A DNA stretch of 64,000 nucleotides. It comes from Escherichia phage QL01. Location: the sequence record NC_028847.1; one strand, given 5' to 3'. The number at the start of each line of letters is the position of its first letter. Within the stretch, counting starts at the first letter, position 1. Position numbers and translations under genes: made by a program. The notes under the pieces are model-generated. The model saw only the letters and a program-made list of their open reading frames with translations. It was not told where the DNA came from and ran no database searches. Shown piece by piece: positions 1,266 through 42,602 of this stretch.

Positions 1266-2944
1266 TCCATCACCGTGAATCGTCCAACTTTCTTCATTTG
1301 AAGATGTTGGCCATAAGCTTGTGGGTCATGGTCTCGGTGAGAGATAATGAACACGTTCGTATCCTCAAGGCTATTCAAGATGGTTGCAATGGTCTTAACG
1401 CCTTCAGCGTCAGTAGCACTGTCAAATACCTCATCAAGAATTAACGTGCTGATATTAACACCTGATACCTTAGAAGCAATATCGCGCCATGTAAAAAGTA
1501 GTGCGATATCAATACGTGCTTTCTCACCCTGTGAAAATGAAGCATAACTAAAGTCTTCACGTCCACGTGATTTAATCGTCTCATTGAACTCTTCGTCTAG
1601 TGTAAAGACGTAGTCGGCTTCCATAATCTTCAAATAAGAATTTATCTGCTTATTAAAGATAGGAATGTATTTCTTAATAATGGAACCTTTAATACCAGTA
1701 TCCTTCAACATTTCTGTCAGAATTCCACGATGGTATTTTTCCATTACCAAGGACGATTTGGTAGAGACGATTTTATCAAGCTCTGCTTGAAGCGCGGCAA
1801 TCTCTTCGGCATTACTTACGAACTCAGCAGCTGCTTGGTCGATTAATACTTTAACTTTTTTAGCTTTCTCTACGGCAGTAATGGCTTGTTGCTTATGAGT
1901 AGCTATCTGAGATTTAATAGCCAGAGCTTTATTACGTTGTTCGGTTACTTGGTCCTTAATGAGCTTGAGTTCTTGGTACTGTTCGTTAATCTTATCCAAA
2001 GATTTTTGAAGCTCAAAGTTCTTATCCTTAATTTTAGTAAGGATATTTCCATGCTCTTCCAGTCCTTGCATACATGTAGGACAACTACCACCGGTTTCGT
2101 ATAATTTCACGACCTTAGTAAAGGTTGCCATATCATTCTTGATTGCAAATCCTTTATTGCTCAGGTCACTCATAGAGTTGCTAGGGTCATCATCGACGAT
2201 GACATTGAGTAATTCATCAGTCAGTTTTTCTATATTGCCCTTCGCAGTCCTGGCTTCTTTAACGAGCTCATCGTACATTGTTTGTAGACGTGCTGCGTTC
2301 TCACCTGATAATTTACGCTGACGTTCTTCGTTGTCATTATAAATTTTAATTTGCTGGATAATAGAATCCTGTTTAACGTCGATTACTTGGATTTGGCTAT
2401 TAGTCTCACGAATCAAAGATTTGTTCAACTTGTCCATATCCGCTAATACAGAAACCTCTAAGAGGTCTTCCACAAGCTTTCGGCGCGCAGGGGTCGACAA
2501 ACCCATGAAAGGGGTATACCCTGCTGTACCAAGTACGACAATCTGTTTGAAACTGGTATATGACATTCCGATAAGCTGTTCAAATTCTGCTTGGAAGTCT
2601 TTACTGCTGGCAGATTCATCAAGACGTTCACCGCCACAAGAGATTTCAAAAACGTTCGGTTTTTGCCCGCGCTTGATATAGTATTCTTTGCCATCATATT
2701 CCATCCACAGTTCGACCAAAAGGTCTTTCTTATTACTTGAGTTAATCAACTGCCCTTTCTTAACATCACGAAAAGGCTTACCGAACAGAGCAAATGTAAC
2801 GGCTTCAAGGAACGTAGATTTACCAGCGCCGTTTTTACCGGTGACTAAGGTCTTTTGGACCTTATCAAGTTGGATTGTAATAGGTTGCTGGCCTACCGAC
2901 ATAATATTTTTATACGTTACTTTCTTTAACTTAAACGTTTTCAT
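1262..2944 (-). CDS. 46: recombination endonuclease subunit gp46 (Rad50/SbcC-like ATPase)
   Basis: 560 aa; Walker A GKNGAGKST near N-terminus, long coiled-coil middle, ABC-type C-terminal region; same length as T4 gp46. Confidence 0.92.
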   Translation of the reverse strand: MKTFKLKKVTYKNIMSVGQQPITIQLDKVQKTLVTGKNGAGKSTFLEAVTFALFGKPFRDVKKGQLINSSNKKDLLVELWMEYDGKEYYIKRGQKPNVFEISCGGERLDESASSKDFQAEFEQLIGMSYTSFKQIVVLGTAGYTPFMGLSTPARRKLVEDLLEVSVLADMDKLNKSLIRETNSQIQVIDVKQDSIIQQIKIYNDNEERQRKLSGENAARLQTMYDELVKEARTAKGNIEKLTDELLNVIVDDDPSNSMSDLSNKGFAIKNDMATFTKVVKLYETGGSCPTCMQGLEEHGNILTKIKDKNFELQKSLDKINEQYQELKLIKDQVTEQRNKALAIKSQIATHKQQAITAVEKAKKVKVLIDQAAAEFVSNAEEIAALQAELDKIVSTKSSLVMEKYHRGILTEMLKDTGIKGSIIKKYIPIFNKQINSYLKIMEADYVFTLDEEFNETIKSRGREDFSYASFSQGEKARIDIALLFTWRDIASKVSGVNISTLILDEVFDSATDAEGVKTIATILNSLEDTNVFIISHRDHDPQAYGQHLQMKKVGRFTVME

Positions 2945-3165
2945 GTATTGTTCTCACGAATTGTTTGTTCAGCATATTCTAGCATTTCTTCGGAAGAAGC
3001 AAACACGTCGTCAAGTTCCATGGCCCATGAAACACCTTCAGAATATTCAGAAGTGACATACATAGTTCCGGTATACCAAGAACCATCCACGTCCCATTCT
3101 ACATTACCGAACCAGCCATCGCCAATATGAAAATCATGTTTATACATTTTCATCATTATAAGCAT
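2941..3165 (-). CDS. hypothetical protein (between 47 and 46)
   Basis: Minus-strand ORF in tight operon packing, 4-nt overlap with gene 46 start. Confidence 0.4.
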   Translation of the reverse strand: MLIMMKMYKHDFHIGDGWFGNVEWDVDGSWYTGTMYVTSEYSEGVSWAMELDDVFASSEEMLEYAEQTIRENNT

Positions 3166-3403
3166 CCTTGATGCATGATTCAGCCATATGAATTAATGTT
3201 TCTGGAGTATCATCTACCATTACATTAAAGCTAAATTCCACAGCCCAATCAGTAGCAACATAAACTTTAATAAGCTCGTTGGTATCGCGAGTGCTCACGG
3301 CTTCAAACCAGAACTTAATGATATTCGTTTGGTTATCGTCATCAATAACGATGCAGTCGTGTTCTAGTTCAAGGCCTGATTTTTTGAATTCATCTAAAGT
3401 CAT
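3140..3403 (-). CDS. hypothetical protein (between 47 and 46)
   Basis: Minus-strand ORF, 4-nt overlap with gene 47 stop. Confidence 0.4.
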   Translation of the reverse strand: MTLDEFKKSGLELEHDCIVIDDDNQTNIIKFWFEAVSTRDTNELIKVYVATDWAVEFSFNVMVDDTPETLIHMAESCIKDAYNDENV

Positions 3404-4422
3404 CGTGTAACCTCATTATAAAGTTGTGCGGTCATAGTCTTAAGGGCTTTAACATCGTCTTCAGTGTGGCCATCAGGAAGGGCATCGATATAATCATACA
3501 TCATATCCAAGAGGGACTTAACTTCATCTTCCTCTTCAGAATCATCGATATCAACACTGTTATCTACCTTAGACACAATACGTAAAGAGTGAACAACCTT
3601 TTCAAGTTCAGATTCGAACTTGGTAAGCCCGTCATCAATTTTATCGACTATAACACGAACCGCAATATTTGTAAAATCTTTGTAATCGATAGTCGCATTC
3701 GGATAATGAATCTTACGATGCCAACAAGTTTCATTGATGATGAAATCCATTTTATGGGTTTCTGTATCGAAAATCCAGAAGCCACGAGGGTCGTTCTCAT
3801 CACCTGCAGTCAGGGTCCATGGCGTACCAATATACTTGACGTTTGCTGCATCAGAAATGGTGTGGAAGTGACCAGACCATACTTGCTTATACTTCTTAAG
3901 GAAATCAGGTTCTAAACCATGTGATTTCATTCCTTTATAGAAATAGAAACCATTTAATTCCCAGTGGCCAATACAGAAATCGGCAGTAGTATTTTTGATA
4001 TGGTCCATGATATCAGTCGTGTTTTCTTCACACATCCATGGAATCAAATCAATTTCTGTACCATCAAAGTTAACCGTAGTAGGTTTCTCAATAACCTTGA
4101 TATGGTCGTATTTACCCAGAACTTCAGAAGCAGCGTTCGGTGTCAAGGTATTTTTGTAGTGTGCATCATGGTTACCAACAACAGTATACATGGTAATGCC
4201 ATTTTCTTTAAGCAAATCTGAAATATGTCTGGCAAATTCCATGCACTTATGAGTAATTGCTTTACGAACATCAAAAATATCACCATACTGAATCCAGACA
4301 GTGATACCATTTGCTTTAGAATAATTGATGGCGTCTTTAATGCCTGCCAATTGAATATTTTGCACCCAAGGGTCGTCGTTCTTCACTCCAAGGTGCCAGT
4401 CACCCGTATTAAGAATTTTCAT
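3400..4422 (-). CDS. 47: recombination endonuclease subunit gp47 (Mre11/SbcD-like phosphoesterase)
   Basis: Begins MKILNTGDWHLG (phosphoesterase motif I), GNHD motif downstream; ~340 aa; start taken at internal Met of ORF 3400..4494. Confidence 0.9.
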   Translation of the reverse strand: MKILNTGDWHLGVKNDDPWVQNIQLAGIKDAINYSKANGITVWIQYGDIFDVRKAITHKCMEFARHISDLLKENGITMYTVVGNHDAHYKNTLTPNAASEVLGKYDHIKVIEKPTTVNFDGTEIDLIPWMCEENTTDIMDHIKNTTADFCIGHWELNGFYFYKGMKSHGLEPDFLKKYKQVWSGHFHTISDAANVKYIGTPWTLTAGDENDPRGFWIFDTETHKMDFIINETCWHRKIHYPNATIDYKDFTNIAVRVIVDKIDDGLTKFESELEKVVHSLRIVSKVDNSVDIDDSEEEDEVKSLLDMMYDYIDALPDGHTEDDVKALKTMTAQLYNEVTR

Positions 4423-5026
4423 TACGTATCCGTTCCCACATTTTGGAGGCTGCTTTAGAAGCAGAGCCAGGAAGTTTACCTTTGACCCACCCATCAGGAA
4501 TATTAGATGGGTTAATCAGTTTATGTTCTATTCCGTTATTATACCACTTCCTGCCCTTATTATGACTAGATGCTTTATAATTAGGTGAACGACCTTCTAC
4601 ATATCCTTCGGGGACTGTAGGTGCAAAGGTTTGTTCTAATGTAATAGGATTATAGGAATGAATATACCCTTTAGCATTATGAGAGCCGTAAAGAGGGTGT
4701 TGCTCTTTAGGTAGCGAAAGCCCAAAGAATCCTTTAGGAGCTGCGACAGCCCTATTAAAGAATAGAGGATTTTGGGCCGCATTGGTTCTTAACTGGTACA
4801 TTCTTTCAGCTTCTAAAGCCTCTTCTCTTGTAGGGTGTTCACTTACAATACATGAGTCAAATAATTCTGGATGCTCTAAAAGCTCATTTTTATAGATTTC
4901 TTTATATGCTTTAGAAAGGACACTCCCGTGATATCCTTTTAAATGCTTCTCTAAAGTGGTAGACCCTATATAAAACGGTGGAAGCTTAGTCCCGGAATAT
5001 ATTGTCAGGTATGTGATGTATTTCAT
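4409..5026 (-). CDS. GIY-YIG family homing endonuclease (Seg-like), free-standing
   Basis: N-terminal YLTIYSG...PPFYIGST resembles GIY-YIG catalytic motif; C-terminal basic NNGIEHKLINPSNIPDGWVKG typical of homing-endonuclease DNA-binding modules; overlaps gene 47 start by 14 nt. Confidence 0.65.
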   Translation of the reverse strand: MKYITYLTIYSGTKLPPFYIGSTTLEKHLKGYHGSVLSKAYKEIYKNELLEHPELFDSCIVSEHPTREEALEAERMYQLRTNAAQNPLFFNRAVAAPKGFFGLSLPKEQHPLYGSHNAKGYIHSYNPITLEQTFAPTVPEGYVEGRSPNYKASSHNKGRKWYNNGIEHKLINPSNIPDGWVKGKLPGSASKAASKMWERIRNENS

Positions 5027-5050
5027 AGATTTATTTTATCATCCGAATAT

Positions 5051-5076
5051 AAAGCAAAAAAGGAGCCTAAGCTCCT
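5051..5076 (-). terminator. putative intrinsic terminator (short stem GGAGC-loop-GCTCC followed by T-run on minus strand)
   Basis: Inverted repeat aggagc/gctcct on plus strand; A-run 5055-5060 gives U-run on minus transcript; sits between small ORF and GIY-YIG gene. Confidence 0.35.
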
Positions 5077-5240
5077 TTACCAACTAATACACCGTACAGA
5101 GGTTCGTGATTAGACCTGAACTTGATAGGCTTATAGGTAATAGTACCTTCATTTTCTGCTTTAATACGAGCGGCTTCAAATTGAAGTATCATCTCATTTT
5201 TGTCAGATTTAATCTTATCAAAATCCATCGAATTCGTCAT
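5067..5240 (-). CDS. possible 57-aa ORF (below ORF-track size cutoff); may instead be a degenerate promoter-cassette remnant
   Basis: ATG at 5240-5238 preceded by AAGAGG; open frame MTNSMDFDKIKSDKNEMILQ... to TAG at 5069-5067; contains core-like ttgataggcttatag. Confidence 0.3.
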   Translation of the reverse strand: MTNSMDFDKIKSDKNEMILQFEAARIKAENEGTITYKPIKFRSNHEPLYGVLVGKGA

Positions 5241-5482
5241 TCATACAACCTCTTAAACTTTTTCGTATTCGTCTTTCATTAGCCGCCTGTCCACGTTATC
5301 ATCGTTGCCACCATTTCTTAAGTTGATGAGAATCTACCCAAACCTTGGCTACGGGCTCAATCCGAAAAATTCCATCGGAATACTGGCCGACCATTTTATA
5401 TTCGGTTTCGGACTGCTTAATACAGATATTACCGTATGAGCGAAGTCTAAAGGCGGCTCCAATAAGAAGCCGTTTAAAGGGT

Positions 5483-5794
5483 TTATTTACTAGGGCCATT
5501 GACGATTTCCCAAATTTGTTTGCGGGTAGATTCCCACATCAATTGAACAAGTTCATCAGTAACAGGTTGACGGTAAATACCACGTAATTTAATTAAAGCG
5601 TACTTATATGCTTCAAAGTTGTTTTCAAGTACAGCGCCTTGGGCATGGAGATTTAAACGACGGATTTCACGAGCATTCTTCTTAAGAATCTTAGCCGCTT
5701 GAGAATTAGCTTCTTTAATATTGTGCTCTTCTAAACGTTGCTGGGCTTCTTCAATTTGCTCATCAGTCAATTGAGAAATGTCATGGCTTTGCAT
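5483..5794 (-). CDS. hypothetical protein
   Basis: 103-aa minus-strand ORF downstream of gene 55 cluster. Confidence 0.45.
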   Translation of the reverse strand: MQSHDISQLTDEQIEEAQQRLEEHNIKEANSQAAKILKKNAREIRRLNLHAQGAVLENNFEAYKYALIKLRGIYRQPVTDELVQLMWESTRKQIWEIVNGPSK

Positions 5795-5795
5795 A

Positions 5796-6062
5796 TTAAT
5801 CCTTTGGAGTCAATTCAATAGTGAAGTAGAAATTAGCGTTCTCAACATGATAACGGTAATCTACGTTATTGTCAGGAGAAGTGAATTCAATATTCCTGAC
5901 GTTAAGTGGGTCAATATCAATAGGAAGACCTTTAACATCCCGTAATATCAATTTAATAAAATAAGGGAGTGCTTCGAAGTCTTCCATTCCATCTAAAAGT
6001 GGAGTGATATTAATCTGATGTTCCATATAAAAAATCCAGTTCACCAACTTTAGGTTCGGCAC
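5796..6062 (-). CDS. hypothetical protein (true start probably internal; overlaps 3' end of gene 55)
   Basis: 88-aa minus-strand ORF; start uncertain. Confidence 0.35.
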
Positions 6063-6567
6063 TCTTATCAGACCCTGGTGCTTTAGTTAAAGAGGTTTCA
6101 TACTGAGTCATTTTGTCGTAGATATCTTGGATAAAGGTTTCATCTGCAATACCTACCATGTCGTCATCATTACTGTCATAGACATTATGGACGAAGTAGC
6201 TATATTTCTTTGCCATTTCTTTACGTTCTTTTTTGATACGCTGAACGAAGGCATTAAAACAAGCCATAGTGATATATGCATGTGGGTTGTCGTATTTTGT
6301 TTCGTCGAAGTTGTGAAGACCTTTAATCGAAGCTTCGATTCCATCAGCAATCATTTCTTGCTTCCAAGATTGGGTATATCCTGAGAAGTTGAAACGTTTA
6401 CTTAGTCCTTCAGCAATGAGCATAATAGCCAAGCCGATAACGTCGTTCTGGCGAACTATTTTATTAGGATCGGTATTTTCTCTGAGTTCTGTTTTCCATT
6501 GGGTGATAGCTTTCAGAAGCTCCTTATTATTTACATAGTTATTTTTAGTCAGTTTAATTTCGGTCAT
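6010..6567 (-). CDS. 55: late-transcription sigma factor gp55
   Basis: 185 aa, same length as T4 gp55; N-terminal NYVNNKELL and [45 protein letters not shown] block are T4 gp55-like. Confidence 0.88.
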
Positions 6568-14760: not shown

Positions 14761-15284
14761 TATGCGAGAACCGTCTTTAAACGCTCTTCAAATTTCTGAA
14801 GCAGAGCTTGGCGTTCAGCTCGTTGTGATTTGTACTGCTCGATACGACCTGAAGTGAGGGCGTACTGTTCGTTTACTGATTCCCGCATGAATTCAGGAAT
14901 CTCTTTACAAGCTTTGATTTCGTCAAACTTATCAATAACAGCTTGTTGTTCAGCAATCAGATTATCGAAATAAGCGATATCAGATTTAACGTTTGCCAGG
15001 TCAGATTCGGTAGGCATTAAACGTTTGTTACGTTCAGCTTGATAAGCTTGATTGGTTTCACGACTCCAGTGAAGAGTACGTTTTTTGTTAGTGTTTTTAT
15101 AGAGCTCTACAATACCAACTGAATCGATGACAACAATCCAGTTCCAACGGCTTTTGTAAATCTCTCCTCCAGATACAGTAATCTCATTACCACAAGCAAC
15201 GTCGTTAAAGAACTTGCTTTGTTTTTCGGATTTGAAATTACCATTGTTATAATTGATGAGTGAAAAAATATCTTTAGCGTTCAT
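14760..15284 (-). CDS. hypothetical protein, C-terminal coiled coil
   Basis: 174-aa ORF downstream of a core-bearing promoter cassette. Confidence 0.45.
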   Translation of the reverse strand: MNAKDIFSLINYNNGNFKSEKQSKFFNDVACGNEITVSGGEIYKSRWNWIVVIDSVGIVELYKNTNKKRTLHWSRETNQAYQAERNKRLMPTESDLANVKSDIAYFDNLIAEQQAVIDKFDEIKACKEIPEFMRESVNEQYALTSGRIEQYKSQRAERQALLQKFEERLKTVLA

Positions 15285-15339
15285 GTTAACCTCCAGTAGT
15301 TGATAGGTCTATAGTATCATTTCTACTGGAGATGTAAAC
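15285..15339 (-). promoter_or_regulatory. PeSL-like early promoter cassette (core ttgataggtctatagtatca; IR CTCCAGTAG/CTACTGGAG sequestering SD)
   Basis: Core at 15300-15319; gtaaac at 15334-15339; arms at 15291-15299 and 15323-15331. Confidence 0.6.
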
Positions 15340-15341
15340 AA

Positions 15342-15683
15342 CTAATAGAAACTTTTTTCACCGGCTTGACCACTAAACCATGCGGATTGAGTGTTCTCTT
15401 TCCGTTGGTGTTCAATACGAATGCGATATTCATTCCTGATGGCGCAGAGTTCATCTCGGAAGTCGCCTGCCAACTTTACCTGCTTGCGGTCTAGATTTAT
15501 TAAGGCCTGGGTGTTAACGGCCAAGCGCAGTCTCCTGAAGTCTCCTCCACTACACGGATTTTTATAGAATTTCTCAGAAAACTTAGTACTACATTCATTA
15601 GTATAGTCTTCAACAGACTGTTTCATAGCTTTGGAAAAAGTCTGACCTGCGTTATAAAGATTGTAAATAAATTGTTCAAACAT
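15342..15683 (-). CDS. hypothetical protein
   Basis: 113-aa minus-strand ORF. Confidence 0.4.
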   Translation of the reverse strand: MFEQFIYNLYNAGQTFSKAMKQSVEDYTNECSTKFSEKFYKNPCSGGDFRRLRLAVNTQALINLDRKQVKLAGDFRDELCAIRNEYRIRIEHQRKENTQSAWFSGQAGEKSFY

Positions 15684-15692
15684 AATTCACCC

Positions 15693-16673
15693 TTATTTCA
15701 GAAGTGTAACTTCAGCGATTTCGCTCCAGTCATTTTTATCGGTGGCAATGAAGTCCGCCAGATAAAGAGCTGTACGTAATGATACGTTACGAAGACGAGA
15801 TACATTAGCCTTCATCCATGCTAAAGCTTGGTAAGTCTCGGCATCAGTCAGACCACGGTTTTGCATCATATCAGTGGACAGGATAACGTCTTCAACACGA
15901 ACCATAATCTCTTCGTTCGAGTGAACTCCGAGGTCTAAGTAAACTGAACGCGATACTAAAGCCTGGAGGTGTGGAGCAAGTTTAGTTCCACGCTCTAATT
16001 CACGGTCAATATCAACGTTGGTGATGAACACGATGGTGCCTTCATACTCAAATTCTTTATCGATATTTTTATCATCAAGATAAGAACTTGAAGTGCTCCA
16101 GCACACCTTACGTTTTTCACCAGTATCCAATGCTGCTTTTAACAGGTTCAGGATATCCATATCAGAGAATACATCAACATCATCAATAAGAAGAACACTA
16201 TTAGGGCCGCGGTTATTCCAAAGCTGCTCGTAAAGACCGATTCCACTAATCTTTCCGTTGATTGATTTATATTCGATAGTTTCATTTTCGTGGGCATTCT
16301 GTAATGCTTTATCCAAAGAATATGTTTTACCAATACCTGCGGCACCAGAGATGATAAGGGAACGAATTTTACCATCGATGATTCCATTAGTCATCATGTT
16401 CATTACTTTAAAACGTTTGTTAATGCGATGTTTCATTTCTTCAGCGGATTCAGTAACAACTGCAGGAGCTTCAGCACCTTCCATTTCAACGTCACATTTG
16501 AACACCCATACACCACGTTCAACACCATCAATCTGTACAAATACCTTACCATCACCGAGGTGAGCTTCGGATTCATGAATTTTATTAGGGAACCAGGTTT
16601 TACCTGAACTCATGAACGTACCGGAGATTACATTACCGCGATAGATACCTTTGTTGATTTTGATAGTTAACAT
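15693..16673 (-). CDS. P-loop NTPase (Walker A GAAGIGKT, Walker B LLIDDVD), function unknown
   Basis: Start set at MLTIKINKG (internal Met of ORF 15693..16817) preceded by GGAGAA SD and promoter cassette. Confidence 0.55.
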   Translation of the reverse strand: MLTIKINKGIYRGNVISGTFMSSGKTWFPNKIHESEAHLGDGKVFVQIDGVERGVWVFKCDVEMEGAEAPAVVTESAEEMKHRINKRFKVMNMMTNGIIDGKIRSLIISGAAGIGKTYSLDKALQNAHENETIEYKSINGKISGIGLYEQLWNNRGPNSVLLIDDVDVFSDMDILNLLKAALDTGEKRKVCWSTSSSYLDDKNIDKEFEYEGTIVFITNVDIDRELERGTKLAPHLQALVSRSVYLDLGVHSNEEIMVRVEDVILSTDMMQNRGLTDAETYQALAWMKANVSRLRNVSLRTALYLADFIATDKNDWSEIAEVTLLK

Positions 16674-16739
16674 TATATTCTCCATTTCACTCAGTAGATT
16701 TGATAGGTCCATAATAACATGCTCTACGAAGGTGTAAAC
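16674..16739 (-). promoter_or_regulatory. PeSL-like early promoter cassette (core variant ttgataggtccataataaca)
   Basis: gtaaac 16734-16739; minus strand GTTTAC-17 nt-TATTAT; SD GGAGAA. Confidence 0.5.
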
Positions 16740-16754
16740 TCTTTTTTGCACTAA

Positions 16755-19528: not shown

Positions 19529-19765
19529 TCACCAGTATTTGTTGATAGTAGAAATTAATTCTTGGGCTTGGGTAGTCTTCAGTTTACATCCACAACCCTT
19601 TAATGTGTCTTTAAGGAGCCACGGTTCCTTGAGCTCGTCCTTTTCTAGACGAATTCTGTATCCTCGATAATCAGCGAAGATACTTCGGTCGTCGAATATC
19701 TTAATCTCAAGGATACGACCGTTGATTTCATATTCTAATGAAACCGTAGTACTTGTAAGTTTCAT
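19529..19765 (-). CDS. hypothetical protein
   Basis: 78-aa ORF directly downstream of a core-bearing promoter cassette. Confidence 0.4.
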   Translation of the reverse strand: MKLTSTTVSLEYEINGRILEIKIFDDRSIFADYRGYRIRLEKDELKEPWLLKDTLKGCGCKLKTTQAQELISTINKYW

Positions 19766-19822
19766 ACTGTTCTCCTCATTAGTTGATAGGTCTATAGTAT
19801 CATGTTCCTAGAGGATGTAAAC
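19766..19822 (-). promoter_or_regulatory. PeSL-like early promoter cassette (core ttgataggtctatagtatca)
   Basis: Core 19783-19802; gtaaac 19817-19822; minus strand GTTTAC-17 nt-TACTAT. Confidence 0.6.
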
Positions 19823-19830
19823 ACCTAAAC

Positions 19831-23672: not shown

Positions 23673-23729
23673 TTTGTAATCTCCTGTAGTTGATAGGTCT
23701 ATAGTACCACGTCTACAGGAGATGTAAAC
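23673..23729 (-). promoter_or_regulatory. PeSL-like early promoter cassette upstream of regB (IR CTCCTGTAG/CTACAGGAG)
   Basis: Core variant 23690-23709; gtaaac 23724-23729; arms 23681-23689 and 23713-23721. Confidence 0.6.
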
Positions 23730-23733
23730 TGCT

Positions 23734-23985
23734 TTATTCTTGGAATGGGGTAAGTTTTCCAGCAGCTGAACAAATTTCTACCAGTACAGGGTAAAACTCT
23801 TTCACTTGTTCAAGGCGTTGGGCTGCATACTGTACTTCACCTTCTTCGAGACAAGCCATTTGGTCGTCAAGCAAGTATTTGTGGTAGCCAGTACAGGCTT
23901 CACCGATGATACGCTGGAAATCTTGTAAACTTTCAATTTTCATCAGTATTTTTCCTCGGGTTGGAAAACGGAACGACACGCCCAC
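23734..23985 (-). CDS. hypothetical protein
   Basis: 83-aa ORF. Confidence 0.35.
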   Translation of the reverse strand: MGVSFRFPTRGKILMKIESLQDFQRIIGEACTGYHKYLLDDQMACLEEGEVQYAAQRLEQVKEFYPVLVEICSAAGKLTPFQE

Positions 23986-25752: not shown

Positions 25753-26169
25753 TTAAGCGTAAATAGCCTTGCCATAATGTTTGTACCAGGTAGGACGCTG
25801 TGCAATTTTTTCATCCAAACGGGTCTGAGATATAGCAATAGAAGCTTCGTGTGGAGTATAGTCACCACGGAATTCCTGAGGAATGTCACTAATGTCCTGG
25901 ACAGTAGTATCCTTGATATTAAAACCACGTTTTAAACATTCGGCTATAAGCTCAATTTGTCGCTTACGTAAAAATTCAAGCTTATCGTAAAAGAATGTAA
26001 CATGGCCTGTGCCAAGGATAAAAGTAGGACTGATTTTGAAATCACGGACACGTTTACCATTAGCAACATGCTTACGAACTGCACCGAAAACACGTGGTAA
26101 TTCACGATATTCAGCCATTAAGTGTTGGTCAGCCAATTCAGATACTAAGGTAAGGTTGATACGAGTCAT
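25753..26169 (-). CDS. denV: endonuclease V (pyrimidine-dimer DNA glycosylase) DenV
   Basis: 138 aa; [34 protein letters not shown], colinear with T4 endo V. Confidence 0.92.
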
Positions 26170-26225
26170 TTTTAATCTCCTGTAGTTGATAGGTCTATAG
26201 TATCATGACTACAGGAGATGTAAAC
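26170..26225 (-). promoter_or_regulatory. PeSL-like early promoter cassette upstream of denV (IR CTCCTGTAG/CTACAGGAG sequestering SD)
   Basis: Core 26186-26205; gtaaac 26220-26225; arms 26177-26185 and 26209-26217. Confidence 0.6.
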
Positions 26226-26249
26226 AACTTTTATCAAGTATAGGCTTTA

Positions 26250-30020: not shown

Positions 30021-30086
30021 TTTATTCTCCATTTCACTCTGTTGTTTTGATAGGTCTATAGTATCACACCTATAGACCTTGTACAC
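30021..30086 (-). promoter_or_regulatory. PeSL-like early promoter cassette (core; IR AGGTCTATAG/CTATAGACCT flanking -10)
   Basis: Core 30046-30065; -35 variant GTGTAC (plus gtacac 30081-30086). Confidence 0.55.
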
Positions 30087-30098
30087 TGTTTTGTGCAA

Positions 30099-32981: not shown

Positions 32982-33331
32982 GATTTACATTCCTTAATAA
33001 AGGTTTCAAGGTCATTACGTTTAGTTTGTTTTACATACTCATTATAATTAGCCATAGCTAAAGCATATCTCTTTTTACGTGGCTTGTTTATTTTATTAGT
33101 TTGGGCAATATCAAAGACCCATGGGATAAAAAATCCTATTAAAGCCGGAACCCAAATCCATGCAAGGCTCATATCTTCAAACGGATGGCGAGGCATACCA
33201 TTAATAATCCCACCGACAAGAAATCCAATTATCCCTGCAGTCATACTAGTAGCAATGCCGAGGAATAAGGAAATAGCTATATCATAATCTGCTAATGCGT
33301 AACCAGGGTCGGTTTTACTAGGCTTATGCAT
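32978..33331 (-). CDS. hypothetical membrane protein (2 TM; start MHKPSK)
   Basis: Internal start with AAGAGG SD; two long hydrophobic segments. Confidence 0.45.
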   Translation of the reverse strand: MHKPSKTDPGYALADYDIAISLFLGIATSMTAGIIGFLVGGIINGMPRHPFEDMSLAWIWVPALIGFFIPWVFDIAQTNKINKPRKKRYALAMANYNEYVKQTKRNDLETFIKECKS

Positions 33332-34964: not shown

Positions 34965-35228
34965 TTATTTCATATTATTGAAATAATTTTCTGCATCAAA
35001 ATCACTACCATGGTAAACTTTGGTAGACGATTTGGCGTAACCTTCAGCTGAGAACATATTAATCACAACTTTAATTGTATACCACTGTCCATCTTCATTA
35101 CCCATTACTGCATAGGTTTCATACACCGGGTGTTCAGGACCGATAACCTTAATATCGTTAACTGTGGCACCAAATTCTTCCGGAACACATTTCATAAAGA
35201 AATTAAACACTTCACCATAATTATCCAT
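34965..35228 (-). CDS. hypothetical protein (start MDNYGEV)
   Basis: ATG start with AAGGAG SD; ORF-track start is a GTG 5 codons upstream. Confidence 0.4.
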   Translation of the reverse strand: MDNYGEVFNFFMKCVPEEFGATVNDIKVIGPEHPVYETYAVMGNEDGQWYTIKVVINMFSAEGYAKSSTKVYHGSDFDAENYFNNMK

Positions 35229-35292
35229 TTTACTCTCCTTCACTCTGTTGTTTTGATAGGTCTATAGTATCATGTTCTACGAAAGAGTAAAC
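35229..35292 (-). promoter_or_regulatory. PeSL-like early promoter cassette (core ttgataggtctatagtatca)
   Basis: Core 35253-35272; gtaaac 35287-35292. Confidence 0.6.
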
Positions 35293-35315
35293 ATCTTTTT
35301 TAAACCTTTTAGAAA

Positions 35316-35349: not shown

Positions 35350-35904
35350 TCAGTTCTTGTAGAACCGGAATGGGTTTATGTGGAAGGCTAACATAGCCTT
35401 AGGGATTTTACGAGACAAAAGGCTCTTAAGCTTCCAACCACAGTACACGCGAAGGTAAAAGGTAATCCCACCAACCTTAAGATATGGAACTGAAGCAAAT
35501 ACACCCCAGGCGTCGTCATTCCACATCCATAACCACCCGTGATGAGCTTTATCAGGAGAACCGGATTCCACGTCGGGATTACCTCGATAATGGAATTCCG
35601 AGCTACAATCACGACCGAGTTTATGGTAAGCAAAGTTATAAGCTTTATTTCGCCATAGCCAAGCTACTCTCTGAAGATAAACACCACCCGGCATTTTCCT
35701 GATGTTAGCCCAACGTTTAATATGACCTTTATCACCGTCAATTGGATTATCGTATGTCATCATCCAATCAAAGCCGTACGGTAATTTACCTGTCTTTTTA
35801 TTGTGGAAAGGAACCACAAATGGTGCAAGGATAACAGCCAGAACCATAGAGATAAAATCCAGTGGAACCAACAGAACCCAACTCAAATATTTTAAAAGTT
35901 TCAT
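35350..35904 (-). CDS. hypothetical membrane protein (N-terminal TM; start MKLLKYL)
   Basis: Internal Met directly after upstream terminator; ORF track extends to 36009 through the hairpin. Confidence 0.4.
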   Translation of the reverse strand: MKLLKYLSWVLLVPLDFISMVLAVILAPFVVPFHNKKTGKLPYGFDWMMTYDNPIDGDKGHIKRWANIRKMPGGVYLQRVAWLWRNKAYNFAYHKLGRDCSSEFHYRGNPDVESGSPDKAHHGWLWMWNDDAWGVFASVPYLKVGGITFYLRVYCGWKLKSLLSRKIPKAMLAFHINPFRFYKN

Positions 35905-37292: not shown

Positions 37293-37460
37293 CTCAAATA
37301 AAATTAAGTAAAGTAAGTTTGATTAATAGACCTTGTCTATTATGAAAGGTTCTTTGAGGGAAGAACCTTTGGTAATAGAGGGTATTAATGATAGAGTAAT
37401 AATAACACATTACTCTTAAAGCATATTACTATTTTTAGGAATAGTCTGGTCAAATTTGAT
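37293..37460 (-). promoter_or_regulatory. 168-nt non-coding spacer with three inverted repeats (10-bp AAAGGTTCTT/AAGAACCTTT; 8-bp AGAGTAAT/ATTACTCT; TAGAC/GTCTA)
   Basis: No ORF; perfect IRs at ~37355-37380 and ~37395-37420. Confidence 0.3.
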
Positions 37461-38159: not shown

Positions 38160-38356
38160 TATTCACCTTTAGAGATTTTATCCATAACGAAAGAAATTGA
38201 ACCAATTAAGAATGCCACTACTAAAGAGATTATATTCTCGGAAGTTGAAAGCATATCGAGCATGAATCCTGCAAACATACTAAAGCCAAAAGCAGTAACA
38301 GCGGCCAGTGCAGTAACATTTCTAATTAATTCACAACGTTTCATTTTATTCTCCAA
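38159..38356 (-). CDS. hypothetical small membrane protein
   Basis: 65 aa with two hydrophobic segments; preceded by promoter cassette. Confidence 0.4.
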   Translation of the reverse strand: MENKMKRCELIRNVTALAAVTAFGFSMFAGFMLDMLSTSENIISLVVAFLIGSISFVMDKISKGE

Positions 38357-38410
38357 TCACTCATTTGTTTTGATAGGGCTATAGTACCATCACTAAAGCC
38401 CGTTGTAAAC
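38357..38410 (-). promoter_or_regulatory. PeSL-like early promoter cassette (core variant ttgatagggctatagtacca with compensating partner arm)
   Basis: Core 38370-38389; gtaaac 38405-38410. Confidence 0.55.
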
Positions 38411-38686: not shown

Positions 38687-38911
38687 TTATTCAGCGCCAG
38701 CGGCTTTCAAAAGTTTTTTAAGATTGGCTATGCCGCCAGCAGAAAACGTGACCTTGCCACCTTTTTCATTGATAGAGCCAGTCAATTTAGCAAGCTTATC
38801 ACTAGGGACTTTTTTAAAATCAGCCAGTGTGCCATCAAAGGTTTTTGTAACAATTGGCAGTTCATCTTCATGTCTTTTAGCTTCGGTGATAAATTCTTGA
38901 TAAGTTTTCAT
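38687..38911 (-). CDS. internal protein with capsid-targeting sequence
   Basis: Begins MKTYQEFITEAK; 74 aa. Confidence 0.6.
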   Translation of the reverse strand: MKTYQEFITEAKRHEDELPIVTKTFDGTLADFKKVPSDKLAKLTGSINEKGGKVTFSAGGIANLKKLLKAAGAE

Positions 38912-38977
38912 TTTGATTTCCGTTTGGTTAGTTTGTTTTGATAGGTCTATAGTATCATGCCTATAGACCTTGTAAAC
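38912..38977 (-). promoter_or_regulatory. PeSL-like early promoter cassette (core; IR AGGTCTATAG/CTATAGACCT)
   Basis: Core 38938-38957; gtaaac 38972-38977. Confidence 0.6.
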
Positions 38978-38988
38978 AACTTTTTAAA

Positions 38989-39681
<693 letters not shown>

Positions 39682-41115: not shown

Positions 41116-41766
41116 TTATTTTATAAATTCACGTAGTCTTACTGGTGTCATAAAAGGCCATTTGGCTATAGTTGGTTTTATCCAGTATCTTTCGTGGCAT
41201 GTAGCTTTAAATGCCCGAACCATATCCTTGGCCTCTTCTATAGTATCCACACCAAATTGTTCACAAGTTTCCTTTCTGGCTTTATCCCATCTCCGTTTAG
41301 AAAGCTCCGCTTGGAGTTCTTTATTGGCAAAACGGCCATTATTCCTATCATGAGTGGTTCCTTTTGTAGGACTCCATCCTCGTCCCTTTACAAATCCTTC
41401 AGGAATCGGTTCACCCGGAAACAGCTTAATACACTTCTTGCCATTATTATAATAAACCTTTCCTGTTTGGGTTGCTGTGATATTCTCAGAGTGCTTACGT
41501 TTAAGCCAGCCGTAAAGCTTATTAGAACGACGAGGGCCTTGAGTCATTGTCATAGCTGCAAAAGTTAGACCAGGATGTCCTGGATGCATTTTAACTAATA
41601 GTTGATGTGCTAAATAATGTTCTTCAGGAGTTAAATCAACTAAGTTTGTAGATTCATCACCTCCACCCATACATCTAGGTAAAATATGATGAGATTCGGT
41701 ATAACAGGATAGTGCTCGTCCTTGAGCACGTGTAATTAATGAAGAATATATTTTCTGGTAATTCAT
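41116..41766 (-). CDS. HNH family homing endonuclease, free-standing between genes 2 and 3
   Basis: HNH motif ESHHILPRCMGGGDESTNLVDLTPEEHYLAH; C-terminal basic NNGKKCIKLFPGEPIPEGFVKGRG module; ATG overlaps gene 2 stop (TAATG). Confidence 0.75.
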   Translation of the reverse strand: MNYQKIYSSLITRAQGRALSCYTESHHILPRCMGGGDESTNLVDLTPEEHYLAHQLLVKMHPGHPGLTFAAMTMTQGPRRSNKLYGWLKRKHSENITATQTGKVYYNNGKKCIKLFPGEPIPEGFVKGRGWSPTKGTTHDRNNGRFANKELQAELSKRRWDKARKETCEQFGVDTIEEAKDMVRAFKATCHERYWIKPTIAKWPFMTPVRLREFIK

Positions 41767-42602
41767 TATGCCTTCTTCCAAACTTTCTGAGCTGAATAAC
41801 GCTTACCTTTCGATACAAATTGCTGAAGTGGTAATCCTATTACATTAGCCCAATCAGATGGTTTTATCTCTACTAAAGGTCCCTTAATATTTCCAGGGAT
41901 ATAAGCCTTAATCATCACGTCGGCGCCAGCGAATCCTTTTACCTTACTCCAATCGATTTTTAATTTAGTCGAGTTCGTAATGGTAGGCGTACTCGCGTAT
42001 TGCTTCAGCAATTCTTCCAGAAATTGCTGACGTGCTTTAGGTGGAATATAGTGTAAGTTCAGTCCGTACATTAAATTATGCTTACCTAACCCAAGATAAA
42101 TTATTAAAGGATATTTGTCCCAGTATGGTAGGGTATCCTTATGTTTGGCATCATAGATATAAGCATAAAGCTTACCAGGAGACGGTTTAGATACCTGGTG
42201 TCCACGAATTCCTTTCTTTAATGTTTCTGTAAACCATTTAGCTGATTTATTGTTTACGGCAGCGCCTTCGTTAGCAATCTTATCGCGAATACTCTTTCTA
42301 AAACTATTCACCAAAATTAATTGACGTTCGGCTTTGGTTAATTTATTGCCAGGTTTCTTCTGAAGTTTTTCAACCTGTACAGCAGTTTTAATTCGACTCG
42401 AGTATCGAGACATCGCAGATGTAAAGCTAGAATACTTGATGCCTTTATCTTCAGCGAATTTCTTAGCCGAAACACCTTTAGCCTTAGCGTTGGCATATTC
42501 AACGCCTAAAGTTATCCATTGTTGTTCTGAACGAGTAGGCTTGGAACCTTTTGTAGTTTCAGTAGCCTCGTTGATGTAAGAAAATATACTCATCCTTTCC
42601 AT
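41766..42602 (-). CDS. 2: DNA end protector gp2
   Basis: 278 aa, T4 gp2-like length and position. Confidence 0.8.

Follow-up and report, generated by a model that had tools for sequence, protein, structure and literature searches.

A 64,000-nucleotide (nt) stretch of DNA from Escherichia phage QL01 (sequence record NC_028847.1), which as a whole we refer to as the window, carries on its minus strand an open reading frame (ORF) of 205 amino acids (aa) at positions 4409 to 5026, stop codon included, just upstream of gene 47. From comparative evidence and a predicted structure, we consider it likely that this ORF, delimited by ORF calling and PHROG matches, is a homing endonuclease gene of the GIY-YIG class, free-standing and of Seg type; the phage belongs to the JS98-like (Dhakavirus) T4-type coliphages. 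Its product is an intact and probably active member of a widespread Seg-like GIY-YIG family. A 4-kb query around the locus recovered Dhakavirus genomes (the group of T4-type coliphages JS98, IME08, WG01, and Bp7) at 92 to 98% identity. A preliminary description of this DNA, made from the letters alone, had reported a 205-aa GIY-YIG-type endonuclease overlapping the start of gene 47 and had taken it for a free-standing homing endonuclease. Our analysis bears out both points. The overlap measures 14 nt, given that gene 47 truly starts at the ATG at 4422, and the assignment is backed by the fold, the key residues, a sporadic distribution, and a tract resembling those left by co-conversion.

The ORF runs from an ATG at 5026 to a TAA at 4411 to 4409. 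It matched PHROG 10820 with an E value of 1.4e-92 and PHROG 314 with an E value of 5e-16, and 250 homologues were found in the databases; an NCBIfam search of the protein returned nothing meaningful. By sequence comparison, then, the ORF is a real gene. It stands as an independent ORF between a-gt.2 and gene 47, the reading frame of gp47 is unbroken, and there is no intron or intein. Gene 47 itself (3400 to 4422, minus strand; Pfam Metallophos, PHROG 100) encodes an Mre11/SbcD-like recombination nuclease subunit. At 1,023 nt it equals its counterparts in JS98, WG01, and Bp7, its product is 340 aa long as in those three phages and in T4, and tblastn gave 70% identity to T4 gp47 over 4422 to 3403. 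An alternative start at 4494, which yields the longest ORF and was the choice of the IME08 annotators, was rejected as an artifact.

The N-terminal part of the protein, approximately residues 1 to 100 (4727 to 5026, minus strand), is predicted to form a GIY-YIG-like catalytic domain. In an AlphaFold2 model with a mean predicted local distance difference test score of 84.8, and scores above 90 over residues 1 to 90, we found a compact alpha/beta fold like that of I-TevI or the UvrC N-terminal domain, and the top three Foldseek matches to the model were I-TevI entries (probability, 0.96 to 1.00; target-normalized template modeling score, 0.53 to 0.60). In an alignment of 40 diverse homologues, down to 35% identity, 13 residues were invariant in all 40 sequences (Y6, Y10, G12, P16, Y19, G21, Y32, G34, E48, F56, A70, E74, and N91), indicating purifying selection on the catalytic core. 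The tyrosine motifs are ITY at residues 4 to 6 and YIG at residues 19 to 21, with a spacer of 12 residues, a bit long compared to the usual 10 to 11. When we compared the family with T4 SegA, which itself belongs to PHROG 314, hhalign returned a probability of 92% and an E value of 6e-7. The YIGS and GY-x-GS motifs, E74, and N91 all aligned with their SegA counterparts, the last two matching DAERE...YN of that protein. Taken together, the model and the alignment show a catalytic head with an I-TevI-like fold and a Tyr/Tyr/Glu/Asn set.

This family bears an "HNH endonuclease" label in the RefSeq records of fPS-90, LF82-4, and vB_EcoM_005 and in PHROG 10820, although its fold and motifs are those of GIY-YIG enzymes. 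That the ORF really encodes an HNH endonuclease, a reading whose evidence is these database labels, strikes us as extremely improbable. No Pfam HNH family matched even at an E value of 0.1, structure searches gave GIY-YIG nucleases and no HNH/beta-beta-alpha-metal fold, and the profile link leads to T4 SegA, a GIY-YIG enzyme. The window also contains a genuine HNH protein at 41116 to 41766, whose HH...N...H motif is missing from the 205-aa ORF. Since no HNH motif or fold is detectable, the label on the RefSeq homologues is wrong.

The rest of the protein (4412 to 4726, minus strand) is a putative DNA-binding region made up of two related repeats and a terminal helix. By inspection, the repeats follow the pattern SHNxKG...P[ED]G[YW]VxG[RK] at approximately residues 115 to 146 and 154 to 184, the first reading SHNAKGYIHSYNP...PEGYVEGR and the second SHNKGRKWYNNG...PDGWVKGK, and the model places beta-hairpins at residues 122 to 135 and 160 to 171 and a helix at 191 to 204. 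A WYNNG...GFVKG repeat occurs as well in the tail of the window's HNH protein at 41116 to 41766, and paralogues that share the catalytic head carry NUMOD3 in place of the C-terminal repeats. Phage homing endonucleases are well known for such modularity, a head plus an exchangeable tail. The final 4 codons and the stop of the nuclease ORF come from gene 47 sequence; short nuclease forms have no stop codon of their own but run into gene 47 and terminate at an out-of-frame stop there.

The order in T4 is 47, 47.1, a-gt, mobB, a-gt.2 to a-gt.5, 55, and that in JS98 and WG01 is 47, 47.1, a-gt.2 to a-gt.5, 55; in the window, IME08, and IME540, the nuclease takes the place of the 47-aa gene 47.1. The preliminary description had assigned the nuclease and the small ORFs near it to the slot that alpha-glucosyltransferase (alpha-gt) fills in T4. 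This part does not stand: the small ORFs are a-gt.2 to a-gt.5, which T4 has too, and the slot of the nuclease is that of 47.1. Identity shared with WG01 breaks off right after a -10 element (5033/5032) and returns at the ATG of gene 47. Sampled at 13 loci, the slot held 47.1 (JS98, WG01, vB_EcoM_FB [FB], and MX01), the 205-aa nuclease (the window, IME08, IME540, NC-G, and others), a long nuclease of 251 to 256 aa (vB_EcoM_005 and KIT01), an otherwise empty 57-nt spacer (dhabil and dhaeg), or a 77-nt scar (Bp7, around 1923 to 2000). The first 165 residues of the long form are identical to those of the 205-aa form, and its tail is different and longer. The Bp7 scar is what remains of the long form after a precise deletion between two TGAAATACAT copies; in the long form of vB_EcoM_005 (1571 to 2326), one copy lies at the ORF start and the other near the ORF end.

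Copies of the 205-aa ORF are 99% identical in IME08 and IME540 and are absent from WG01, JS98, and MX01. At the protein level, five other records (IME540, two entries for IME08, Esco_phi_B-01, and NC-G) are 96 to 99% identical. Copies of the nuclease with at least 84% identity were present in 11 records, compared to 50 records for the surrounding 4 kb at 90% identity or more. These comparisons show a sporadic distribution of the nuclease within Dhakavirus, that is, a presence/absence polymorphism at a fixed site among close relatives, and other genera use the same site. In Tequatrovirus fPS-90, Marfavirus EI (a Klebsiella phage), Mosigvirus LF82-4, and the Erwinia phage FBB1, a homologue is the immediate upstream neighbor of gene 47. 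The fPS-90 homologue, 61% identical, sits between 47.1 and 47, with its ATG overlapping the 47.1 stop and an intact alpha-gt immediately upstream. Across these genomes, the comparison shows the nuclease site to be just upstream of the gene 47 ATG in at least four genera and an Erwinia phage.

Signs of transfer were found at the 5' end of gene 47. Relative to the nuclease-less WG01, the window has 52 mismatches in the 274 nt that adjoin the nuclease (4141 to 4414), a divergence of 19%, compared to 6 mismatches in 1,641 nt (2500 to 4140) and 2 in 5030 to 6056 in the flanks, which are more than 99% identical. This candidate co-conversion tract is confined to the gene 47 side of the nuclease. Over the whole of gene 47, 43 codons differ from WG01, and 34 of these differences are synonymous. 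The genome looks like a WG01-type backbone that took up the nuclease gene together with ∼270 nt of adjacent gene 47, and on this comparison the nuclease is caught, it appears, shortly after its entry into a WG01-like genome. Flank replacement of the co-conversion type is seen here on comparative evidence. A one-sided tract in gene 47 is what intronless homing predicts when the cut falls some way into the neighboring gene (PMC2988022), and the tract at 4141 to 4414 is likely the region of the cleavage or recognition site. Bp7 has a gene 47 whose 5' haplotype is that of the long-nuclease genomes and whose 3' part is identical to that of the window and WG01. Within Dhakavirus, a cluster of synonymous differences at gene 47 nt 9 to 18 splits all short-form carriers from all noncarriers. 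The base composition of the nuclease cassette revealed no GC or skew anomaly.

Upstream of the nuclease, the preliminary description had pointed to a hairpin and U-run at 5051 to 5076, and folding agrees. An intrinsic-terminator-like hairpin with a U-run lies downstream of a-gt.2 (5051 to 5078, minus strand), with an 8-bp stem, including 4 G-C pairs, at 5078 to 5059, followed by UUUGCUUUAU; the fold has an energy of -17.1 kcal/mol (z score, -2.3), and its loop contains the TAG stop of a-gt.2. Right after the hairpin come TTTTGCTTTA, 11 nt, and TAAAAT, which together form a T4 middle-promoter-like element (5033 to 5056, minus strand) with a MotA box, TGCTTTA, at 5056 to 5050, an 11-nt spacer, and a -10 element at 5038 to 5033. 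T4 middle promoters have as their consensus a MotA box plus a -10 element. This pattern occurs 4 times in the window, every time on the coding (minus) strand, compared to 0.5 expected; the other matches, at 33041 to 33068, 35474 to 35500, and 37399 to 37426, are candidate middle promoters.

The hairpin is identical whether the slot holds 47.1, either nuclease form, or nothing, and the MotA-type element is kept in the nuclease-less WG01, JS98, FB, dhabil, and dhaeg. MX01 keeps the MotA box and the spacing with a different -10 element (TACAAT); in dhabil and dhaeg, a Shine-Dalgarno sequence and gene 47 come right after the element; and T4 has a similar terminator-plus-box arrangement before 47.1. 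Given their presence in nuclease-less relatives, the hairpin and the MotA-type promoter are features of the backbone, and the insulated arrangement that had been credited to the nuclease is not its own. We infer that the MotA-type element is the promoter of 47.1 and 47. The nuclease ATG lies only 6 nt past the -10 element and is not preceded by a Shine-Dalgarno sequence, so translation of the nuclease is probably weak. It is probably made at a low level, via read-through or near-leaderless transcripts, and it may be translated from a near-leaderless MotA-dependent transcript. Other phage homing endonucleases are reported to be under tight control (PMC2988022), and weak translation would be in keeping with this. 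As for a dedicated late promoter, no TATAAATA was found upstream of the nuclease ATG.

A mechanism for free-standing homing endonucleases of the Seg class has been published (PMC2988022), and the locus is probably to be explained along the same lines. During a mixed infection, the enzyme would attack a related phage's allele that lacks the nuclease, cleaving it either at the junction of 47.1 and 47 or within or close to the first ∼280 nt of gene 47. After resection, the break would be repaired with the nuclease-carrying genome as template, and the recipient would thereby acquire the nuclease gene along with the DNA that separates the cleavage site from the insertion point ("intronless homing" with marker exclusion). 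The cassette would in this lineage have displaced 47.1, landing directly behind the backbone terminator and the MotA-type middle promoter of 47.1 and 47.

Several observations weigh against an active homing endonuclease. The Pfam GIY-YIG model (PF01541) scored the ORF at 18.4 bits, below its cutoff of 22.6, and PF01541 matched only 11 of the 40 family members even at an E value of 0.01; the threshold is a matter of curation, not of biology. Searches of Protein Data Bank chain sequences, with the 205-aa protein and with the 40-sequence profile alike, produced no match. On sequence alone, the case for a GIY-YIG enzyme is thus weak, but the structural and profile results agree with one another. 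The preliminary description had made its case depend on the catalytic residues being present on alignment, and here the outcome is split: Tyr, Tyr, Glu, and Asn are present, whereas at the position that aligns with the canonical Arg (R27 of I-TevI) no counterpart is conserved. At residue 27, 36 of the 40 homologues have K or R, and R67 is near-invariant (37 of 40). In addition, the nuclease-less MX01, dhabil, and dhaeg share the gene 47 haplotype to which the short nuclease is linked. The idea that this 5' haplotype is exclusive to carriers is ruled out by these three genomes, and what the tract proves is therefore recombination rather than conversion driven by the nuclease. The idea of "immunity" substitutions that recur across genera was likewise rejected, given that the nt 9 to 18 pattern fails for fPS-90 versus T4 in Tequatrovirus, and we name no target site. 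The promoter and low-translation idea draws on consensus matches, the literature yielded no description or characterization of the 205-aa family or of a nuclease beside gene 47, and cleavage or homing by the family is predicted from comparison.

Some of these points would suit a decaying or inactive homing endonuclease relic, inherited passively and distributed by ordinary recombination and deletion. Besides the subthreshold Pfam score, the noncanonical Arg position, and the occurrence of the linked gene 47 haplotype without the nuclease, the lack of a Shine-Dalgarno sequence, a start codon within the promoter initiation region, and the losses within the genus (the Bp7 deletion and the empty slots of dhabil and dhaeg) are all compatible with decay. 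We nevertheless regard a relic as unlikely. The ORF is intact and has near-identical proteins in the five records named above, the 13 invariant residues that include the Tyr/Tyr/Glu/Asn set persist in distant homologues, and a transfer in the recent past is suggested by the 274-nt tract, which is almost clean and lies on a WG01-like backbone.

Less likely again, in our judgment, is that the nuclease has been co-opted, either to exclude competitors by disabling their gene 47 or to modulate gene 47 expression. Its placement between the gene 47 promoter and gene 47, overlapping the start of the latter, is what such a role might look like, the same site is kept in several genera, and marker exclusion by Seg enzymes is documented (PMC2988022). 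However, most Dhakavirus genomes lack the nuclease and do well with 47.1 or an empty slot, so it is dispensable; exclusion is a by-product of homing rather than an alternative to it; and nothing in the data bears on regulation.

For a mobile Seg-type nuclease, one extension is conceivable, if doubtful: the slot before gene 47 could be a small arms-race locus. The two nuclease forms have identical catalytic heads and different tails, and each goes with a distinct version of the initial ∼300 nt of gene 47. If the idea is true, cleavage specificity would be co-evolving with target-site immunity, and the target would be the codons of the conserved N-terminal metallophosphoesterase motif of the Mre11-like gp47, an enzyme to which the resection of double-strand breaks in homing is attributed. 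By cleaving gene 47, the nuclease would then both drive homing and cripple the recombination-dependent replication of a competitor.

The preliminary description had also drawn attention to DNA modification, noting that every ORF between genes 47 and 55 is too short for alpha-gt and that the phage may not glucosylate its DNA as T4 does. The first statement is correct, as the longest ORF in this interval is the 205-aa nuclease, compared to 400 aa for T4 alpha-gt. Searches by tblastn of the 64-kb window with T4 alpha-gt, beta-glucosyltransferase (beta-gt), and gp42 found nothing, alpha-gt giving only noise (E value, 0.2). Because the window starts near gene 46, a T4-like beta-gt/gene 42 region would fall outside it. 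IME08 is the closest relative with a full sequence, and in its first 40 kb tblastn likewise found no alpha-gt or beta-gt. Of the three genes whose search had been proposed, gene 42 alone has a homologue there, 24.5% identical, inside an RB69-like gene block that extends from uvsX to gene 43 and includes orf047c/048c-like genes, a thymidylate kinase, a sugar isomerase, and an orf052c-like gene.

These results agree with previous work. Petrov et al. reported in 2010 that JS98-type phages have genes 42 and 56 and no glucosyltransferases (PMC2993671). More recently, Lee et al. (2026) showed RB69 DNA to contain arabinosylated 5-hydroxycytosine, made via a thymidylate-synthase homologue, and placed the Dhakaviruses, by synteny, among the RB69-type arabosyl-5-hydroxycytosine cluster phages (PMC13326640). 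The IME08 block from uvsX to gene 43 is annotated as such a cytosine-arabinosylation cluster. That this phage does not glucosylate its DNA is accordingly very probable, and the lack of glucosyltransferase genes was already on record for JS98-type phages (PMC2993671). The missing alpha-gt is unrelated to the nuclease: the whole genus is known to share this trait, which goes with another pathway of cytosine modification. The fPS-90 homologue, which sits beside an intact alpha-gt, shows that presence of the nuclease and absence of alpha-gt are independent.

The remaining genes of the locus, all on the minus strand, were assigned from Pfam and PHROG matches, tblastn searches with T4 proteins, and the annotations of four relatives. 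Gene 46 (1262 to 2944) is followed by 46.1, 46.2, and gene 47. On the other side of the nuclease lie homologues of a-gt.2 (5067 to 5240; 57 aa; Pfam DUF5486, E value of 2e-19; 57% identity to T4 a-gt.2; annotated in JS98 and IME08), a-gt.3 (5299 to 5499; 66 aa; PHROG and tblastn with T4 proteins), a-gt.4 (5483 to 5794; 103 aa; DUF2654 and tblastn with T4 proteins), and a-gt.5 (5796 to 6026; 76 aa from an ATG at 6026, a start taken from the WG01 annotation; DUF5491 and tblastn). Gene 55, for the late sigma factor, occupies 6010 to 6567, with 79% identity to T4 gp55 and a match to PHROG 234.

Within a-gt.2, the preliminary description had recognized a degenerate core of a repeated cassette, and a copy of TTGATAGGNNTATAG is indeed present at 5122 to 5136 on the plus strand. 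By pattern count, this sequence occurs 9 times in the window compared to 0.01 expected; 8 copies belong to a repeated early-promoter/stem-loop cassette, and the ninth is the partial copy in a-gt.2. At least 8 such cassettes, ∼45 to 90 nt long and with the plus-strand core TTGATAGGTCTATAGTATCA...GTAAAC, lie between 15.3 and 39 kb. Repeat cassettes were located at 15283 to 15347, 16649 to 16743, 19758 to 19830, 23673 to 23737, and 26169 to 26233 and, further along, at 30022 to 30094, 35228 to 35308, 38345 to 38389, and 38887 to 38993. Their minus strand has the form of a T4-type early promoter (GTTTAC, 17 nt, TACTAT), often inside an inverted repeat or stem-loop, and they resemble "promoter-early stem-loop" cassettes of T4-type hyperplastic regions.

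The copy in a-gt.2 has no matching -35 element, and inspection showed its aligned -10 element to be defective. It is found in the nuclease-less JS98 too and is missing from a-gt.2 of T4, fPS-90, LF82-4, and EI, though the peptide is conserved. As a promoter of the nuclease we rejected it on account of these -35 and -10 defects, the terminator in between, and its presence in JS98. We treat it as a probable relic or a coincidence of codon choice, unrelated to the nuclease.

Other mobile genes and annotation errors came to light in the same comparisons. The window's HNH protein at 41116 to 41766 (minus strand) is a mobB-like protein of 216 aa, 48% identical to T4 MobB over 107 aa. A 17-nt exact inverted match connects 4636 to 4652 with 41832 to 41848, beside this mobB-like gene. 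In IME08 (NC_014260; 1923 to 2568), the nuclease gene is unannotated and gp47 is over-extended by 27 codons; the fPS-90 record gives no annotation for the 47.1 coding sequence that lies upstream of its nuclease. FB has an extra 231-aa ORF (3390 to 4085) upstream of gene 55, on the coding strand and overlapping the gene 55 start. It is absent from the window and other relatives and may be another mobile insertion. IME08 also has a mobE/mobB-like HNH gene (15232 to 15888) between genes 56 and 61. JS98 and JS10 were reported to be without homing endonuclease genes (PMC2993671); given the IME08 HNH gene, Dhakavirus genomes do carry such genes despite that report.

The importance of the nuclease is modest; in T4-type phages, elements of its kind are ordinary. 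It carries no information on DNA modification, the missing alpha-gt being explained by an RB69-like arabinosylation pathway. What the locus offers, from sequence alone, is a single genus in which the life cycle of such an element can be read: entry together with a flanking tract, exchange of tails, exact deletion, and sites left empty, with a predicted cleavage target at the 5' end of gene 47. The useful products of the analysis are a corrected anatomy, a predicted target region, the states of gain and loss, and the annotation errors.

Compared to known systems, the best structural match of the catalytic domain is I-TevI from the T4 td intron. Residues Y6, Y19, E74, and N91 correspond to Y6, Y17, E75, and N90 of I-TevI, and both proteins have a catalytic head tethered to a DNA-binding tail. 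Unlike I-TevI, the 205-aa protein is not intron encoded, no zinc finger or helix-turn-helix was detected in it, and its cleavage is likely distant from the insertion point. The stretch from YIGS to GYHGS is ∼8 residues here compared to 16 in I-TevI, so that the R27 segment is shortened. T4 mobB offers a positional parallel, being a homing endonuclease gene in the same 47-55 interval, and the tail of the window's own mobB-like gene shares a DNA-binding repeat with the 205-aa protein; however, MobB has an HNH rather than a GIY-YIG fold, and in T4 its gene is inserted between alpha-gt and a-gt.2.

The T4 Seg proteins (SegA to SegG) are also comparable, although among them our direct comparison used SegA. 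Identity to SegA is only ∼16%; SegA scores 37 bits in Pfam GIY-YIG, whereas the 205-aa family (PHROG 10820) falls below the threshold; and the SegA tail carries NUMOD3 in contrast to the WYNNG...GWVKG-type repeats found here. T4 has no seg gene at the 47.1/47 junction, and, unlike the T4 enzymes, the 205-aa protein is known here from its sequence and a predicted model. Both are nonetheless free-standing ORFs between conserved T4-type phage genes, with an N-terminal GIY-YIG-type domain followed by a modular DNA-binding tail, and the GY-x-GS motif and PHROG 314 are common to the 205-aa protein and SegA. With SegF, SegG, and SegB, the 205-aa gene has in common a sporadic distribution and a flanking replacement like their co-conversion (PMC2988022).

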